Of a stretch of DNA of 6,109 bases, positions 1 to 6,109 are shown in pieces (position 1 is the stretch's first letter; each line of letters opens with the position of its first letter). The position numbers and the translations under genes are program-made. The DNA is from a virus. Its lineage: Duplodnaviria > Heunggongvirae > Uroviricota > Caudoviricetes. The stretch spans positions 1 to 6,109 of IMG/VR virus record IMGVR_UViG_2778261418_000002; one strand, written 5' to 3'. Below the pieces are notes generated by a model. It worked only from the letters and a program-made list of their open reading frames with translations, searched no databases and was not told where the DNA came from.

Positions 1-292
1 CATTGGCAAAGGCTGCACGCAACCCGGCCTTAATTTCCTCTACCTCATCAGCACCTGGCGATGAATCTGACAGTGCGTGATGGAATGCGTAAGCCATGTC
101 GTCGTTTACTGCAACTGGCTCTGCTTCAAGCGATGTCAGTGCGATTCGTGCCAGTTCTAGATCTCGTTCAACCATCTCAAGAACAACTTTGCAGTCCGCA
201 CCTTCTTTGCTAACGCGTCCTTTCACGTTTTCCAGATAACTAACGCTTTCGCGTGCATGGGAGATTAACTGTTCTTTGGTAAAGGTGGTCAT
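1..292 (-). CDS. hypothetical phage protein, partial (3' end lies beyond the window start)
   Basis: ATG at 292-290 with AGGAG (303-299) 6 nt upstream. Hand translation (MTTFTKEQLSSHARESVSYLENVKGRVSKEGADCKVVLEMVERDLELARIALTSLEAEP...) stays open to position 1. Absent from the ORF track, presumably because it runs off the edge. No family recognised. Confidence 0.45.
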   Translation of the reverse strand, partial: MTTFTKEQLISHARESVSYLENVKGRVSKEGADCKVVLEMVERDLELARIALTSLEAEPVAVNDDMAYAFHHALSDSSPGADEVEEIKAGLRAAFAN

Positions 293-302
293 TTGTTACT
301 CC

Positions 303-566
303 TTAACCCGCAGTGCTTTCAACTGACGAGGGGAACAAAATCGTTTCATCAAATCCGGCATTCATATCATGGACAGCAGCACACCAATCCATCGACGAAC
401 GATTATCAAGAGCCTCCATGATTACATCCATGCGGCGTAGGTCATACAGGTAAATGTTTTTATCGCCAATGGTGTAAAAGCCTATTTTTTTCGGTGACGG
501 ACAGCGATCAAGAACGTCCTGTAATTCGTTCAACCATGCTTGTTCTTTTTTTGTCAAAGTTGCCAT
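303..566 (-). CDS. hypothetical protein (~87 aa)
   Basis: Part of track ORF 303..656. The track start is implausible because it overlaps the upstream gene. Internal ATG at 566-564 (MATLTKKEQAWLNELQDV...) has an AGGA-type SD about 8 nt upstream and sits 1 nt after the stop of the gene at 568-786. Stop TAA at 305-303. Confidence 0.45.
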   Translation of the reverse strand: MATLTKKEQAWLNELQDVLDRCPSPKKIGFYTIGDKNIYLYDLRRMDVIMEALDNRSSMDWCAAVHDMNAGFDETILFPSSVESTAG

Positions 567-567
567 A

Positions 568-786
568 TCAGCTTTCCTTATATGGGTTGATTTTGTTGTG
601 CAGTGTGTTGAACGACGCCCATACCACGTCGTTATACAATTCAATAACTGGCTCAATTACTTTTCCGATTATCCAGGCCAGTAATAGCGGGGATATCGGT
701 ATCATCAACACGATAAACAGAATGAGAAACAAAAATTCTGTCGCTCTACTTTTTCGCGGATATTCTTTTCTGAATAATGTAGTCAT
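568..786 (-). CDS. small membrane protein (~72 aa, one predicted transmembrane helix)
   Basis: Track ORF 568..786 with ATG at 786-784. Hydrophobic stretch FLFLILFIVLMIPISPLLLAWIIG. Tightly packed with the next gene downstream. A GC hairpin lies directly upstream of the start (793-808). Confidence 0.45.
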   Translation of the reverse strand: MTTLFRKEYPRKSRATEFLFLILFIVLMIPISPLLLAWIIGKVIEPVIELYNDVVWASFNTLHNKINPYKES

Positions 787-792
787 TTCTTA

Positions 793-808
793 CCGCCCTT
801 TCGGGCGG
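793..808 (-). promoter_or_regulatory. RNA stem-loop (6-bp GC stem, GAAA tetraloop on the - strand transcript) 6 nt upstream of the 786 start codon
   Basis: Plus strand CCGCCC-TTTC-GGGCGG at 793-808. On the - strand mRNA it reads CCGCCCGAAAGGGCGG followed by taagaaATG. There is no U-run after it on either strand, so it is not a classical intrinsic terminator. The only purine-rich SD-like bases for the 786 start lie inside the stem. Confidence 0.4.
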
Positions 809-818
809 CCTCCTGACA

Positions 819-1031
819 TTAATCGTTGTAATAACTCATAGCTTCATTTGCAGCATCAACTGGATCAACATCCCACCAGCAATAATTTGGCTCGACTCCT
901 TCAGGTGTCCACAGTTCTAATTCATTTTTTGCCGCATTCTCGTCGCCAGTAATTTTAAAAATCTGCTCAGAAAATTTCCTCACCCACTCGTTATATTTTT
1001 CCGTATTAATGGTTTTCTGTGTATTTAACAT
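819..1031 (-). CDS. hypothetical protein (70 aa)
   Basis: Track ORF 819..1031. ATG at 1031-1029 preceded by GGAGG about 7 nt upstream (minus-strand reading of 1046-1032). No recognisable domain. Confidence 0.5.
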   Translation of the reverse strand: MLNTQKTINTEKYNEWVRKFSEQIFKITGDENAAKNELELWTPEGVEPNYCWWDVDPVDAANEAMSYYND

Positions 1032-1081
1032 AGATATACCTCCAGTTAAGGATTTGATTTTATTTACAGTGCTAAATTTAT

Positions 1082-1438
1082 TTATTCAGTTCTGGATTTC
1101 GTCGCCCTGCGTATCCGCGCTTTCGCGTTACGCTCAATCTGAATTAACTTTTCTATATTTTTCCGCCTTTCCTGTTCCTCCTGGCGCAATAGCCTTACAT
1201 CATCTGCCAGTCTGGTTTCTCTTTTCGCCACTGAGAGCATCCAGTCAAACGGCTCCACAACTGCACCGCAGATTTTACAGCGGACCTGACGCTCTTTTTC
1301 GTCAACCCGGACAGAAGCGTGATGGCAGTATGGTCTTTCCGATGGCTCATAAAGAAAATTAACTTGATTACGTGGGTCATCCTCTTTTACCGGAAATAAA
1401 ACAATATTACTTAACTCATCCTCTGGTTTTATTTCCAT
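1082..1438 (-). CDS. hypothetical protein with Cys/His cluster (C-H-H-x13-C-x2-C) and a basic coiled-coil-like C-terminus
   Basis: Track ORF 1082..1495 begins with GTG immediately after the upstream stop. Preferred start is ATG at 1438-1436 (MEIKPEDELSNIVLF...) preceded by AGGAGAGGAG. Motif PYCHHASVRVDEKERQVRCKICG, then a charged tail RLLRQEEQERRKNIEKLIQIERNAKARIRR. Confidence 0.5.
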   Translation of the reverse strand: MEIKPEDELSNIVLFPVKEDDPRNQVNFLYEPSERPYCHHASVRVDEKERQVRCKICGAVVEPFDWMLSVAKRETRLADDVRLLRQEEQERRKNIEKLIQIERNAKARIRRATKSRTE

Positions 1439-1495
1439 GCTCCTCTCCTTTGATGCGAATGCCAGCGGCAATTGAAGCCTGATAGCTAATTTCAC

Positions 1496-1918
1496 TCACA
1501 GTACCGCCTCCTGAAAATTACCCTGATAGAAAGCCAGTACACGCTGCATAGCTTCGCTCTTCCGGCACTCGCGACAGATTATATTCAGGCGCCTGTCGTA
1601 GCGGCGTATTTCTCCGTCTGGTAATGACCAGATAAGGTCCGGATCAACCGCAGATGGTTTCTTCGGCTTTGCCCTTGAGAGCTTTTTACGGGCATTTTGC
1701 CAGTCCTTACGCGCCTGTTCAGACGGGAATAACCCGTAACCAGAGTTGTATACATCGCCACTGGCAACCAGCTCTCTGGCCAGAACGCTCATCAGATATC
1801 TTGTTGCCCCAGTTTTAGTTTCCAGTTGTCGTAACGTCTCGCGCCCACTCTGGCGTACGAGTTCAACAACCTGCCCTTTAATTTTTTCCCGCTCTTCTTG
1901 TGTAAATACTTTTGCCAT
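1496..1918 (-). CDS. hypothetical protein with an HTH-like segment
   Basis: Track ORF 1496..1933 begins with TTG. Preferred start is ATG at 1918-1916 (MAKVFTQEEREKIKGQ...) with GGAGG 5 nt upstream. HTH-like segment GRETLRQLETKTGATRYLMSVLAREL; C-x2-C near the C-terminus (CRECRK). Confidence 0.55.
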   Translation of the reverse strand: MAKVFTQEEREKIKGQVVELVRQSGRETLRQLETKTGATRYLMSVLARELVASGDVYNSGYGLFPSEQARKDWQNARKKLSRAKPKKPSAVDPDLIWSLPDGEIRRYDRRLNIICRECRKSEAMQRVLAFYQGNFQEAVL

Positions 1919-1933
1919 AGGTGCCTCCGGCAA

Positions 1934-2704
1934 TCACTTTTCCGACACAATACGACTGGAGGAATCGAAAATCTGTCGGACAATATCCCGGTGCCTGTTC
2001 AGCTCCCGCAGCGCAGCGCAGACACGCTCCCACTTCTGGACATGATTTTTCGCCCGACGCAGTTCGCGGTTTGCCAAATGCAGCGATGGCAAAATCAAAT
2101 CATCAGCTCGCGTTGCAGTAAACGATGGCAGCGACTGCACAATGTCCGCTACAGTTTCTGTTTTAATATCTTCCTGTGTTGCAGCTTCCTGTACTGGTAA
2201 CGCAATGCCGGCTGGCTGAGGAAAGGCTTTACCATCATTCTCCGTTACCGATGCGACTTTCGGCTTTACTGGTAAATTCTCGCCCGGCATGCAGTAGCGA
2301 AATTTACCGTTCTGGTTTACGCGTGCCAGCCGCCCCGTTGCGGTTACTACCGCCAGCGTGGAAGCAACCTTGCGAGTGCTGACACCGAACTTACCCGCCA
2401 GTTCCTCACACGTTTTAGCGCCCTCCTGACCGATAAACCCAATCATCATGTCAGCGGTAACTTTTCGTTCGACCTCCCTGGTTAGCACATCCTGTACTTC
2501 AGATTGTGCTGGCTGCTCTTCGGCTACCCCGGATTCACCTTCACCAGCCACACGCCAGGTGTATACGCTTTTATCAACGAAGCCAGCCTTTTTCAGTTCC
2601 CACAGCTCGTTCAGTACTTCTTCACGACTGATATCAAGTCGCGCAGCCAGCTCTACCGACGTGGCTTTTCCCATCGCTTTCAGTGCGTCAAAAACAGTCT
2701 CCAT
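1934..2704 (-). CDS. phage protein with two winged-helix-like domains separated by an acidic linker (resembles prophage proteins I recall as DUF1627; unverified)
   Basis: Track ORF 1934..2704, ATG at 2704-2702 with GGAAGGA SD. N-terminal wHTH-like [43 protein letters not shown]; acidic linker; second wHTH-like [44 protein letters not shown]. Lies directly downstream of the P-like gene. Confidence 0.6.
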
Positions 2705-2736
2705 AAATTTCCTTCCGGTAAAAATTACTTCTCAAC

Positions 2737-3402
2737 TCAAACAAACCCAGCCGCTTTCCGGCGTTCATATTCCTGTTTCAGCAACTCAATTGGCGTTGGT
2801 CCCGCAGGACGTATGGGTGCTGCCAGTTGCCTACGGACGGGTGGAACACTCAGTCCGTTACCAACATGCTTTGCCCATTTCGTCAGCTGCCGTTCTGCAA
2901 GCCGTTTTAACTCCCCCTCGGTCATCTGCCGCTCAATCCCCTTTGAACGCATCTCGAGGCAAATGTGATACAGCACGGGCTGAGGCCACGGATATTTATC
3001 GCTTCCGTCGTATCGCCAGGACTCATTGCGCCAGCGGCGATATTCCTCCATCACGTTATCCACCGTCAGACCAAATGGATTTGCCCCGCTCTCCGAAATC
3101 AGCGCCACAAACTCAGCCAGGTCCGGAGGCCATGTTTCACCCGCCCGGCAGCGGTCCATGCACTGGCGGCAGACCTGCCGGATTTGCTGCTCAGTCATCG
3201 CGCCAATCTGTACAATCCAGAGCTTCGAAGGTGCGGCCCCGTTCTTCTGGGTCCAGCGGTTCGAATAAATCTCCCCCATGAGTTCCCACAGCTTCCAGGC
3301 AGTTTCCGTCGTTGATAAATCCGTTTTCACGTTCCCACTGCTCACGTGCTGCCCGAATTTCCTGAACTGCCCGTGATGCGGTGCCACCTGGTGCTGCTGC
3401 AT
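2737..3402 (-). CDS. replication protein P-like (lambda P family helicase loader)
   Basis: C-terminal two thirds align by eye to lambda P as I recall it ([19 protein letters not shown] / [13 protein letters not shown] versus lambda AESYPWKSNAHYWLVTNLY / TDAELRRKAADEL). ATG at 3402-3400 has a strong SD (AAGGGGG, about 6 nt spacing) but overlaps the O-like ORF by about 212 nt out of frame. Alternative in-frame ATG at 3198-3196 forms ATGACTGA with the O-like stop. Start uncertain. Confidence 0.75.
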
Positions 3403-4231
3403 GGTTTACCCCCTTGCTGACTGGTTTAGCCTGCGCCCTGACGTGATTTACGTGACGGGCGAATTTCTGCTCCCACTGAACCTGCGTGAAAACTTTACCC
3501 TCCGCTGCCCAGTAGTCCCGGAAGGCGGCAAGTTCAGCTGGTGTAAATTCCGGCTCCGGCAGAGCCACTCCCCACAGAGCCGCCCGTCGTCGAAAATCCG
3601 GCGACGGATGCCAGCCATCGGTCATCGGAAATTTCCCGATGGGTTCGCTCAGGCCTTCCAGGTAATCAGGTTCCGATGTTTGCAACGGCACGCCATTTGC
3701 CTCACTGACCGGAGCACTCTCGCGCACGCGCGCGTTATGTGTGGGGTTTAATTCTTTATCTGTATCTTTATCTGTCGTGACTCGTCGTGACATGTCGTGA
3801 CATATGCGTGACTCGTCGCGCGCCCCCTCATTCTGTTTTCGTAATTTTTCCCTCTCGCGCTGCGCTCTCTTGCGCTCTGCCGGGGATTTCGCGGTTTGTG
3901 AAACGTTGCCATTGTCCTCTTTCAGTACCTGGCGTTTTTCCCATCCACTGATCAAATCTCCATCAAGTACCCGCCCCTGCATTGCCTGTAAAATTGAATC
4001 AATTACTTCTTCCGTCACATCAAGCGCACTTGCTAAATCTTCCGTCGTGACATCAATGTGACCACGTAGTGACACGCCGTGACATGTCGTGACATTTCGT
4101 GACGCGCTCACCAGAAGGTGGATATACACAGCCATCACTGTTGCGATTGGCTGCCCTGACACCCTGGCAATTGTTCGCCACTTAGGGTCATTTGGCATGT
4201 CATGCCATAATCTGAGCCAGGCGTTAGCCAT
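3191..4231 (-). CDS. putative replication initiator (lambda O position; YdaU/DUF1376-like by recollection)
   Basis: Track ORF 3191..4237 begins with GTG. Preferred start is ATG at 4231-4229 ([18 protein letters not shown]...) with GAGGTG SD. Sits between the CII-like and P-like genes as O does in lambda. Contains two embedded GTGAC repeat arrays and an AT-rich block, as ori lambda lies inside O. The family name is from memory. Confidence 0.65.
3775..3812 (+). repeat. iteron-like array A: four direct (T)CGTGAC repeats at 10-11 bp spacing
   Basis: GTGAC at 3777, 3787, 3797 and 3808. Preceded by an AT-rich block with two ~11-bp direct repeats (tctttatctg, 3752-3774) and an alternating CG tract (3721-3734); followed by GCGCGCC. 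Confidence 0.55.
4044..4103 (+). repeat. iteron-like array B: six direct GTGAC-core repeats at 10-11 bp spacing
   Basis: GTGAC at 4047, 4058, 4069, 4079, 4089 and 4099, all in the same orientation. The motif falls in all three codon phases of the O-like frame (peptide [20 protein letters not shown]). Confidence 0.55.
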
Positions 4232-4302
4232 ACTCACCTCTTTTGATACCGAATCTTTTTACTCACAAATTGCCGGAAGTGATCTGGTATGAATATCGCG
4301 AG

Positions 4303-4728
4303 TCAATGCACAGCCACAATATTTCCTGCAGGGCCACCACGATTCATCTGGTTGAAACCAGCGATCGCCACTGCGACAAAATCATCAGCGTCTCTCACCA
4401 GTCGTTCCCGCGTCTCCACCAGCTCCCGAAAATAGGCTGAACTGTGGCTGCGCATTCGGGCCACCAGCAGAGGTGGCATTGCTTTTTCGATCGCTGGTAA
4501 CAACGCCTGAATTTTTTTAACCGCATCAGGGGTGTCTTTCTCCACCCAGCGGAATATTTTCTGAGTATTGCGAGCCAGGGCTTCCGGATGGCTGTCGTCA
4601 TATAGCTCCGGGAACGTCATACCAAGCTCAAAATAAGCCCGGGTTATTTCAGCTGCCGGAACTTTTTCACCGTCCGGATGCGCCCAGACATTCATCGCCA
4701 TGCGGATGTGTTCATGCTTGATTTTCAT
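4303..4728 (-). CDS. ydaT: YdaT-like protein (CII functional analog in Rac/CP-933P-type prophages)
   Basis: Track ORF 4303..4728, 141 aa. Begins MKIKHEHI and ends IVAVH, matching my recollection of E. coli YdaT in length and termini. Its ATG overlaps the stop of the Cro-like gene (TAATG). Occupies the cII position. Confidence 0.7.
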   Translation of the reverse strand: MKIKHEHIRMAMNVWAHPDGEKVPAAEITRAYFELGMTFPELYDDSHPEALARNTQKIFRWVEKDTPDAVKKIQALLPAIEKAMPPLLVARMRSHSSAYFRELVETRERLVRDADDFVAVAIAGFNQMNRGGPAGNIVAVH

Positions 4729-4940
4729 TAATCATTCTTTCCTTCGTTCGAGGTGCTATCCTGCTTCTTGTAAAGTTCTGGGTTGTATTTCAATTCACCG
4801 TTAGTAATTTCATCCAGTTCCATTGCGCGAAGTTTGGGAATAACTGCTTTCCACCGCACAACAGCCACATGTGAAATTCCAAGAGCCTCAGCTACTAGTC
4901 GCTTTTTTTTGAAATAGCGCAGAACATCATCTTTGAACAT
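4728..4940 (-). CDS. Cro-like HTH regulator (YdaS/DicC-like)
   Basis: Track ORF 4728..4940, 70 aa. ATG at 4940-4938 with AGGAG SD at about 6 nt. HTH signature KRLVAEALGISHVAVVRWK. First gene of the operon divergent from the repressor. Confidence 0.75.
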   Translation of the reverse strand: MFKDDVLRYFKKKRLVAEALGISHVAVVRWKAVIPKLRAMELDEITNGELKYNPELYKKQDSTSNEGKND

Positions 4941-4969
4941 AAAACTCTCCTGTTATTTCGAGCGGGAGG

Positions 4970-4983
4970 GTAACAATAGTTAC
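4970..4983. promoter_or_regulatory. operator-like palindrome GTAAC-AATA-GTTAC (proximal to cro)
   Basis: Perfect 5-bp inverted arms with a 4-bp spacer in the cro/cI intergenic region. Lies where the -10 of a leftward promoter would fall, given the perfect TTGACA -35 at 4996-4991 on the - strand. Confidence 0.45.
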
Positions 4984-5017
4984 ATAGAAATGTCAACCAT
5001 AGCAACATCACTTGGTA

Positions 5018-5031
5018 GTAACATTGGTTAC
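5018..5031. promoter_or_regulatory. operator-like palindrome GTAAC-ATTG-GTTAC (abuts repressor start codon)
   Basis: Same half-sites as the 4970-4983 site. Ends 1 nt before the ATG at 5032. Contains TAACAT, a possible -10 for a leaderless repressor transcript. Confidence 0.45.
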
Positions 5032-5706
5032 ATGAAAAACACTATCAGCGAACGTATTCGGAATCGTCGAAAAGACGTTGGATTAACCCAACAGCAGGTT
5101 GCGAAAGCAATCGGCATATCTCGTGTATCCGTAACAAAATGGGAAAATGGCTCTTCAAAACCTGACGGTGAGAATTTGCATCTACTGTCAAAATTGCTTT
5201 CCAAATCTCCTGAATGGATTCTTTATGGAAAGGACTGTCACGATAAAACCGATGATCTGCGTCTGAATCAGTACCCTTACATTAGTGACAACATCGCCCG
5301 GTTGCCCGTTTTAACGTGGGAACAGGCTGGTTATTGGGATATGAGTTGTCCAGTAACCGAGATTCCTGGTATTAAGAATTGGGTTGATGTCATGACAAAA
5401 ACCGCTGAAAACTCTTTTTTATTGCATGTTGAGGGAGATGCGATGACAAACTCTAACGGCCTCCCAACCATCCCCGACGGATCTACCGTGCTGATCACAC
5501 CATGCTCAAGTAACATTAGAGAACTGGTGGGAAAAATAATCTTAATCCAATTGGAAGGAACGCCAAACGTAACACTAAAAAAAGTTGCGATTGACGGACC
5601 AAACATCTATCTGTTGTCACTGAATCCGCTTTACAAACCCATCGAACTGAATGGTGGTTACACCATTAAAGGTAAAGTTTCACAAATACATCAATACTTA
5701 GACTGA
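5032..5706 (+). CDS. CI-like prophage repressor: N-terminal XRE-type HTH plus C-terminal LexA/S24-like domain with Ala at the nucleophile position
   Basis: Track ORF 4933..5706 begins with TTG. Preferred start is ATG 5032 (MKNTISERIRNRRKDVGLTQQQVAKAIGISRVSVTKWENG), which leaves both operators intergenic; ATG 4990 is an alternative. C-terminal domain aligns by eye to lambda CI/LexA: QAG at the Ala-Gly cleavage position, VEGDAM where lambda has VEGNSM and LexA VSGMSM, and TLKKV...LNPLY versus lambda TFKKL...LNPQY. Confidence 0.8.
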   Translation: MKNTISERIRNRRKDVGLTQQQVAKAIGISRVSVTKWENGSSKPDGENLHLLSKLLSKSPEWILYGKDCHDKTDDLRLNQYPYISDNIARLPVLTWEQAGYWDMSCPVTEIPGIKNWVDVMTKTAENSFLLHVEGDAMTNSNGLPTIPDGSTVLITPCSSNIRELVGKIILIQLEGTPNVTLKKVAIDGPNIYLLSLNPLYKPIELNGGYTIKGKVSQIHQYLD

Positions 5707-5711
5707 GTCAG

Positions 5712-5738
5712 AACCCGCATTCATTGCGGGTTTTTTAT
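5712..5738 (+). terminator. rho-independent terminator of the repressor gene
   Basis: 8-bp stem AACCCGCA / TGCGGGTT with loop TTCAT, followed by TTTTTTAT, 6 nt after the stop codon. Confidence 0.65.
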
Positions 5739-5768
5739 GCCCTCAAGTGTACCTTTTGCAACATTGTA

Positions 5769-5797
5769 TTGACTCTAATGGTAACTCTTGTTACCTT
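5769..5797 (+). promoter_or_regulatory. putative rightward promoter (PL-like) with embedded operator GGTAAC-TCTT-GTTACC
   Basis: TTGACT (5769-5774), 17-bp spacer, TACCTT (5792-5797; weak -10). The 16-bp palindrome at 5780-5795 has the same half-sites as the two operators in the cro/cI intergenic region and covers the spacer and -10. Confidence 0.4.
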
Positions 5798-5975
5798 AAC
5801 AACATACCAACCCACCCCGCCCCACAGAACGCAGGGCAATACTTCGAGTTACCAGGCAGTGGTCAGGGGGTAAGTAGCCAGCCCGAGGCGTAAGAACATG
5901 ACGGCAGGGTTCAACTTTAACTATGCAGCAGGTTTTTGTTCCGCTACCCCGGCGTTAAGGGGAAATGAGGTCAAC

Positions 5976-6109
5976 ATGGATACTATCGATCTTGGCAACA
6001 GCGAATCTCTGGTATGTGGCGTGTTCCCCAATCAGGACGGTACGTTCACCGCGATGACGTATACCAAAAGCAAAACGTTTAAAACCGAAAATGGTGCCCG
6101 TCGCTGGCT
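5976..6109 (+). CDS. hypothetical early-left gene, partial (continues beyond window end)
   Basis: ATG at 5976 with GAGG 5 nt upstream; frame open to the window end (MDTIDLGNSESLVCGVFPNQDGTFTAMTYTKSKTFKTENGARRW...). In-frame upstream ATG at 5898 is an alternative start. Resembles a small Rac-region protein I vaguely recall; no name assigned. Confidence 0.5.
   Translation, partial: MDTIDLGNSESLVCGVFPNQDGTFTAMTYTKSKTFKTENGARRW

Follow-up and report, generated by a model that had tools for sequence, protein, structure and literature searches.

What is the layout of an immunity switch whose cro-like and repressor genes diverge across only 91 bp, and which proteins read it? The question is raised by a 6,109-nucleotide stretch of a Caudoviricetes record (IMG/VR record IMGVR_UViG_2778261418_000002, positions 1 to 6,109), referred to throughout as the window, in which the original prediction had described a compact switch with two operators. 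We consider it highly probable that these 91 bp make up the OR of an E. coli prophage whose lambdoid immunity module is of the P22 immC type, and the ordinary reading of the comparisons presented here is that the switch would be a five-site OR/OL system of P22 immC type with an operator specificity that we did not find described.

The immunity region and its prophage

By Pfam and genome comparison, the window is the immunity and replication region of an E. coli lambdoid prophage. The genes and signals around the switch, in window coordinates, are as follows.

2737-3402: lambda-P-like gene (Pfam)
3191-4237: gene for a DnaT-domain protein (Pfam)
4303-4728, minus strand: ydaT gene, CII analogue (Pfam YdaT_toxin, PF06254, E=1.1e-9)
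4718-4735, no strand assigned: YdaT-type inverted repeat TTGATTTTCATTAATCAT, in a PRE-like position at the cro/ydaT junction, one mismatch to TTGATT-N6-AATCAA
4728-4940, minus strand: cro-like gene, 70 aa (Pfam P22_Cro, PF14549, E=2.8e-16; PDB 1rzs, E=9e-12)
4945-4951, minus strand: Shine-Dalgarno sequence AGGAGAG of cro, 4 nt ahead of its ATG, read from sequence
5032-5706, plus strand: CI-like repressor gene, 224 aa, HTH_3 and Peptidase_S24 domains (Pfam; matches to lambda CI and P22 C2)
5711-5737, plus strand: intrinsic terminator downstream of the repressor gene, with a hairpin (-15.8 kcal/mol, z = -3.8) ahead of a U run
5977-6109: DUF1391/YdfA open reading frame (MDTIDLGNSESLV...), running off the end of the window

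Because the cro-like open reading frame begins at 4940 on the minus strand and the repressor gene at 5032 on the plus strand, the region between these divergent genes is 4941-5031, 91 bp as originally given, and the gene context (Pfam, PDB) upholds its reading as a cro/cI control region of lambdoid type. The match of the Cro protein to YdaS in Pfam is sub-threshold only. Both repressor domains are recognized by Pfam (HTH_3, E=2e-16; Peptidase_S24, E=9.6e-17), lambda CI aligns over residues 11-217 in the repressor comparison, and among proteins of solved structure lambda CI and the N-terminal domain of P22 C2 (E=2.5e-12) come closest. The inverted repeat TTGATTTTCATTAATCAT spans both the cro stop and the ydaT start, and by our own estimate about 0.01 such matches would be expected by chance. 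A scan of the window against Rfam gave two sub-threshold matches only; Trp_leader (5646-5739) was rejected since the match consists of the terminator hairpin alone.

Of 5426 complete E. coli genomes, 702 contain a 1.2-kb stretch of this region with a coverage of at least 80%. In the best-matching genome it lies inside a prophage adjoining tRNA-Ser/mtfA, followed downstream by ydfA, ydfB, ydfC, dicB, an exonuclease gene and a frameshifted integrase gene; the DUF977 gene of this prophage is also frameshifted. The open reading frame at the end of the window is the first gene of a ydfA-ydfB-ydfC-dicB block that resembles the block of the Qin prophage. In the phage genome collection there was no close DNA or protein match, the top repressor identity being 43%.

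Number and position of the palindromes

The two palindromes of the original prediction are present as described: GTAAC-N4-GTTAC occurs without mismatch at 4970-4983 and at 5018-5031, the second directly followed by ATG 5032 and containing TAACAT at 5019-5024, and TGTCAA at 4991-4996 reads TTGACA on the minus strand. There is also a third perfect copy, at 5781-5794, which lies outside the intergenic region and had been missed. The motif GTAACNNNNGTTAC thus occurs three times in the 6,109-bp window against 0.01 expected, and none of 200 shuffled sequences contained three or more copies. Three sites that depart from the motif at two positions (1736, 2294 and 5353, the last within coding sequence) were set aside as noise, 1.78 matches being expected at two or fewer mismatches.

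The count of perfect copies bears on whether these palindromes are operators at all. They might have arisen by chance or be recognised by something else, for instance a host protein or a restriction/modification system, and our search of the literature for GTAAC/GTTAC operators, which found no description of a GTAAC-N4-GTTAC operator, could be taken to point that way. We regard this as extremely improbable given the excess of perfect copies, and for two further reasons developed below: the positions of the sites relative to the repressor gene are fixed across genera, and the half-site covaries with the recognition helix in both the repressor and Cro.

The claim that only two sites are visible is wrong or incomplete. 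Conserved site positions in relatives and in P22 point to five sites rather than two:

4970-4983, no strand: OR1, GTAACAATAGTTAC, perfect, overlapping the PR -10; at -62 from the ATG in all relatives
4993-5006, no strand: OR2, TCAACCATAGCAAC, degenerate, 6/10, overlapping the PR -35; positional homologue of CAAACAACAGTTAC at -39
5018-5031, no strand: OR3, GTAACATTGGTTAC, perfect, adjoining the repressor ATG; perfect in 20/20 relatives
5749-5762, no strand: OL2, GTACCTTTTGCAAC, 7/10; positional homologue of the relatives' OL2 and a conserved island
5781-5794, no strand: OL1, GTAACTCTTGTTAC, perfect; found by motif search

The comparison rests on a scan of one genome per species, which yielded 58 loci; the 20 closest, with repressors 43-53% identical to that of the window and from about 15 genera (including Yersinia, Buttiauxella, Kluyvera, Edwardsiella, Erwinia, Rahnella, Kosakonia, Klebsiella, Arsenophonus and others), were used as relatives. 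All 20 carry a perfect GTAAC-N4-GTTAC at the repressor ATG, a site found at none of the more distant loci; in 18 it adjoins the ATG, and in the other two (L002 and L019) a few bases intervene. When the relatives are aligned on the ATG, GTAACAAAAGGTAC stands at -62, CAAACAACAGTTAC (8/10) at -39 and GTAACATT(G/A)GTTAC at -14, with a length of 90-93 bp for the intergenic region in this GTAAC clade. The middle site is found within two mismatches in 14 of the 20; its counterpart in the window, with a centre 23 and 25 bp from those of its neighbours, matches at 6/10 compared with the relatives' 8/10, which is not significant by itself. Two or three further sites, spaced 31-35 bp apart, are found in 18 of the 20 relatives downstream of the repressor stop codon and a terminator, and nearly all of these relatives have a TTGAC(A/C/T) hexamer between the OL sites. 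The window would follow this pattern, with a perfect OL1, an OL2 at 7/10 and TTGACT between them.

The two weak sites leave room for a different view, in which the switch of this E. coli clade truly has two operators, only OR1 and OR3 (and OL1) being functional and the middle site and OL2 decayed remnants. The scores of 6/10 and 7/10 speak for it, as do the frameshifted integrase and DUF977 genes of the prophage in the best-matching genome and the OR2 right half, of which five close relatives show five different forms (GCAAC, GTAAC, GGTAC, GTGAC and ACAAC). Yet both weak sites sit at conserved positions, and both have the right half GCAACAT, mirroring the GTTACAT of the strong sites. The population data also count against decay. 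When IMG/VR was scanned with a sequence pattern, 96 prophage copies of the same clade were recovered, with 29 distinct versions of OR and 36 distinct in-register versions of OL. The search pattern itself specified OR1 and the TGTCAAC of the PR -35 (4991-4997), so that neither is informative in column counts, and OR2, with 3 of 14 columns variable, offers only 9 of 14 that are free of this bias; the other operators vary at 3/14 (OR3), 5/14 (OL2) and 4/14 (OL1) columns and the PL -35 at 2/6. Variable columns make up 21/26 of the cro leader, 5/7 of the spacer from OR1 to the -35, 9/11 of the OR2-OR3 gap and 4/6, 5/6 and 10/12 of the gaps beside the PL elements. Across the 96 copies, then, operators, -35 hexamers and the TA..T of the -10s form conserved islands between variable gaps; within OR2 the right half, G[C/T][A/G]AC, varies only at the two positions that mismatch the consensus, and in both OR2 and OL2 the consensus-matching positions are conserved while the flanks vary. 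A true two-operator switch is therefore, in our judgement, rather unlikely, and we proceed with five sites.

Half-sites and recognition helices

If the palindromes are operators, the proteins that bind them would be expected to change with them, and three clades allow this to be seen. In the GTAAC clade the CI recognition helix is (S/T)RVSVTKWE and that of Cro is ..AV(C/V/S)RW, with half-sites GTAAC/GTTAC and the arrangement GTAACATTGGTTAC-ATG. In phage mEp390 and seven genomic loci the helices are NRVTVTGWE (CI) and SHASVSGW (Cro), the half-sites are GTAGG/CCTAC and the arrangement is GTAGGATTGCCTAC-ATG; the 62-bp distance from OR1 to the ATG is kept. In a third clade CI has GTVSQWV, Cro has TVSLWK, and the half-sites are GTTTAA/TTAAAC, again with a site adjoining the ATG. 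The residue ahead of the conserved Trp shifts in parallel in both proteins (K/R, G and Q/L, respectively) along with the inner half-site bases. By sequence comparison, half-site specificity matches the recognition helices of repressor and Cro across all three clades.

These loci (L163, which is mEp390, 1085-1197; L022-L027, L030 and L045; L040, L042 and L043) look like sister immunity types, in which the base-pair layout and the operator at the ATG are the same and the half-sites and both helices have changed together.

Four things are directly observed: the sites themselves, the non-random number in which they occur, the constancy of their positions from genus to genus, and the way in which they covary with the recognition helices. 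It is on these that we base the conclusion, which we hold with considerable confidence, that the palindromes of the window represent a 14-bp operator core, GTAAC-N4-GTTAC, for the CI-like repressor and the P22-family Cro, in agreement with their original reading as operators.

Candidate promoters and the proposed circuit

A consensus scan for promoters and terminators over 4700-6109 returned no sigma-70 promoter, and it also missed the obvious repressor terminator; the promoters were therefore assigned from manual reading and comparative data, and the terminator was verified by folding. The candidate elements are:

4991-4996, minus strand: PR -35, TTGACA; invariant in close relatives found via protein and not via sequence
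4967-4975, minus strand: putative PR extended -10, TGT-TACCCT, 18-nt spacer; TAC..T kept in 29/29 same-clade versions
5019-5024, plus strand: PRM -10-like TAACAT, -13 to -8 from the A of the ATG; TA..AT kept in clades with other half-sites and in P22
5769-5774, plus strand: putative PL -35, TTGACT; TTGAC(A/C/T) stands between OL2 and OL1 in nearly all relatives
5789-5797, plus strand: putative PL extended -10, TGT-TACCTT, 17-nt spacer, from sequence reading

TTGACA occurs three times on the minus strand of the window and is not significant alone; it gains weight because it is conserved, being constant in close relatives. The comparative data favour the original assignment of this hexamer as the cro-side -35, with a -10 that would overlap the first palindrome. 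In both PR and PL the GTTAC half-site and its flank make up the extended -10; the hexamers match TATAAT at only three of six positions and depend on the TGn extension. Among related copies the PR -10 reads TACCCT, TACCAT, TACTCT or TACCTT, with variation in neighbouring bases as well; opposite the final T of the proposed hexamer, all versions have an A. The start of PR would lie near 4960.

On the repressor side there is no recognisable -35 for PRM and no Shine-Dalgarno sequence ahead of 5032. What is kept there is TA..AT or TA...T at the same distance from the ATG whatever the half-site (TAACAT, TAGGAT, TAAGTT/TAAATT and, in P22, TAAGAT), at -13 to -8 in the three clades and at -15 to -10 in P22. 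The OR3 spacer ATT(G/A) is kept in two clades, while spacers elsewhere differ, and the ATG adjoins the operator in all three clades and in P22. The PR and PRM elements read manually appear conserved in related copies, and PR, PL and a leaderless PRM together would fit the conservation pattern; a leaderless PRM transcript for the repressor, as had been suggested, is what we infer from it. There is a precedent: in CP-933P, a YdaS/YdaT prophage, a leaderless repressor mRNA has been established by 5' RACE, N-terminal sequencing and mass spectrometry (PMC8630535).

The circuit that we propose runs as follows. OR1 would overlap the PR -10 and the degenerate OR2 the PR -35, and OR3 would overlap TAACAT and the start of PRM, the promoter from which the repressor itself is transcribed; behind the repressor terminator, OL2 and OL1 would flank and cover a PL-like promoter driving the ydfA-dicB side. 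Repressor bound at OR1 (and OR2) and at OL1/OL2 would silence PR and PL, and OR3, once filled by high levels of repressor or by Cro, would turn PRM off. Most likely the PRM transcript would begin at, or within 1-2 bases of, the A of the ATG, leaving the repressor mRNA leaderless. The order of protein binding, the transcription starts, cooperativity and looping between OL and OR are all inferred from this arrangement. We rejected a geometry like that of lambda, in which OR2 would stand at -42 from PRM: the sites come about 10 bp nearer to where the repressor begins, just as they do in P22. In P22 itself, C2 at OR2 reportedly stimulates PRM, a result said to be that of Poteete and Ptashne in 1982.

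Since the PL-like promoter lies ahead of the ydfA to dicB block, it would control a cell-division inhibitor operon. Its leader has a feature of its own, a block at about 5860-5910 (AAGTAGCC...GAGGCGTA.GAA...) that is non-coding and conserved in relatives (for example, L007:3293-3382 and L164:1926-2015), with the consensus …AAGTAGCC-GCCnn-GGCGTATGAAg-nnGGC/GATGATTCGC. It includes a 5-bp stem; at four of its five pairs, compensatory substitutions are seen among the relatives, ZF40 and AH07 included (CCCCA/TGGGG, CCGGT/ACCGG, CCGAT/ATCGG and CTACC/GGTAG). The hairpin has no match in Rfam; it could be an antitermination or translational element. Separately, a boxA-like sequence, GCTCTTTAACAA, lies downstream of PL in two relatives (L010 and L011), about 150-200 bp past the repressor stop, and suggests N-type antitermination there; none was seen in the window up to 6109.

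The repressor start codon

Where the repressor begins matters for everything said about OR3. PGAP places the start at 4990, 14 codons upstream, which would give a protein of 238 aa; OR3 would then lie in coding sequence, the start codon and TTGACA would overlap, and a promoter further upstream would yield a leadered repressor mRNA. Besides the annotation, the longer form can call on the in-frame ATG 4990 being kept in 29/29 distinct same-clade versions (and appearing as a GTG start codon in L062), and it was for this reason retained as a rival. Several observations argue against it, however. Twelve of the 20 distant relatives have an in-frame stop ahead of the conserved Met and no other possible start codon in the interval, the stop often being a TAG exactly where the window has ATG 4990. 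The 14 additional residues are unconserved except for NIGY, which is the operator AACATTGGTTAC translated, and substitutions in them are mostly non-synonymous, by about 5 to 3 on our reading of the alignment. ATG 4990 includes the complement of the T after TTGACA, so promoter conservation can explain its retention. There is no Shine-Dalgarno sequence ahead of 4990 either, and P22 C2, which aligns with the repressor from residue 5/6, has no such N-terminal extension. We find both the longer protein and the leadered mRNA that goes with it improbable, and take 5032 as the probable start: the ATG adjoining the second palindrome is, to judge from the alignment of relatives, the conserved repressor start that it had been proposed to be.

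Annotated repressor starts in this group look over-extended more generally. Like the PGAP model, with its additional 4990-5031, the ZF40 record (L164 1099-1176) has a cI that begins at a GTG overlapping cro, with an extension that crosses the operators.

A repressor without its catalytic serine

The self-cleavage apparatus of the repressor is incomplete. A QAG site (aa 98-100, with Ala-Gly at 5326-5331) and a Lys (in LKKV, aa 182-185, at 5575-5586) are present, but the Ser is absent: the residue aligned to lambda Ser149 is Ala137 (GCG, 5440-5442), in GDAM as against GNS149M. Residue 137 is Ala in 88 and Ser in 6 of the 96 related IMG/VR copies, and Ser occupies the catalytic position in most relatives in alignment A1 (G[DE]SM). 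The replacement predicts a repressor that would be unable to cleave itself and that RecA could not induce to do so, as if the prophage were locked.

It is tempting to speculate that the switch has been rewired into an SOS-blind lock, with the Ser lost in most copies, OR2 and OL2 decayed and the strong operators doubling as -10 elements for all three promoters, although we think this more probably wrong than right by a wide measure. Under the same doubtful reading, GTTACC(C/T)T would supply TGnTACCYT for PR and PL, and GTAACAT would supply TAACAT for the leaderless PRM. If it were true, the module would be a permanent, non-inducible silencer of dicB/kil-type genes rather than a bistable lysis-lysogeny switch, and the GTAAC-N4-GTTAC specificity would be common to, and the prophages possibly cross-immune among, many enterobacterial genera.

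On the five-site reading, what has been gained, purely by sequence analysis, is an operator set, with probable promoters, for an immunity type that roughly one complete E. coli genome in eight carries and that recurs throughout many Enterobacterales, both in prophages and in phages such as ZF40 and AH07. It may be of use for correcting repressor start codons, for predicting which prophages share immunity and for designing reporter and induction experiments.

Comparison with known systems

The window resembles lambda in gene order and logic, in what would be three OR sites about two helical turns apart, and in the position of OL/PL downstream of cI in the same orientation; the lambda cI mRNA made from PRM is leaderless (PMC8630535). 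It differs in that the lambda operators are 17 bp long and of other sequence, in its use of YdaT instead of CII, and in the fold family of Cro, and the centre of OR3 is 7.5 bp from the repressor start compared with about 19 bp in lambda. The operator type of 933W was rejected as a match, as the published 933W repressor site differs.

A second point of reference is CP-933P (PaaR2/YdaS/YdaT) of E. coli O157:H7, where divergent repressor and cro-like genes are separated by 97 bp and where PR and a leaderless PRM have been mapped by RACE and there is a PL with OL sites (PMC8630535). YdaT of CP-933P is a CII analogue with a footprint on TTGATT-N6-AATCAA at the ydaS/ydaT junction (PMC9986795), and the placement of this site is shared by the window, whose motif at 4718-4735 has one mismatch. 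PaaR2, at about 15 kDa (PMC8630535), is far smaller than the 224-aa repressor of the window. The operators also differ, those of CP-933P being GTTTAGTAA repeats and four inverted repeats, as does the Cro family, which is P22_Cro in the window and YdaS in CP-933P. To our knowledge, PaaR2 has no S24 domain.

In the temperate Pectobacterium phage ZF40 and Pantoea phage AH07, the repressors are 43% identical to that of the window, and GTAAC-type sites occupy the same OR positions, one of them adjoining the ATG. They differ in host and genome backbone. AH07 has a better OR2 (8/10) and three OL sites, and its repressor P0036 retains the Ser (G[DE]SM), unlike Ala137 of the window; ZF40 has one site within two mismatches in the OL region. 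The ZF40 genome paper does not mention operators, and a search of the literature for operators of this phage gave nothing of relevance.

The best parallel is immC of P22, the closest solved homologue for both proteins (C2, E=2.5e-12; Cro, E=9e-12). Its operators likewise have 5-bp half-site cores and a 4-bp A/T-rich centre, its OR spacings of 23 and 25 bp are identical to those of the window, and its OL pair lies 35 bp apart after the repressor gene. The 18-bp P22 operators stand at -66, -43 and -18 from the c2 ATG, so that OR3 adjoins the start codon. There are differences: the half-site is TTAAG in P22 and GTAAC in the window, the sites of the window are 2 bp closer to the ATG, and the intergenic region is 91 bp compared with 80 bp. 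The PR hexamers of the window would also lie about 14 bp nearer cro, which puts the -10 in OR1 and the -35 in OR2; a P22-like placement, with the -35 to the right of OR2, was not found on reading the window. Finally, the window has a degenerate OR2, YdaT as its CII analogue and a repressor with Ala at the position of the catalytic Ser. The principle is not new: apart from an operator specificity that was not found described, what the window presents is the architecture of P22 carried by a different half-site.
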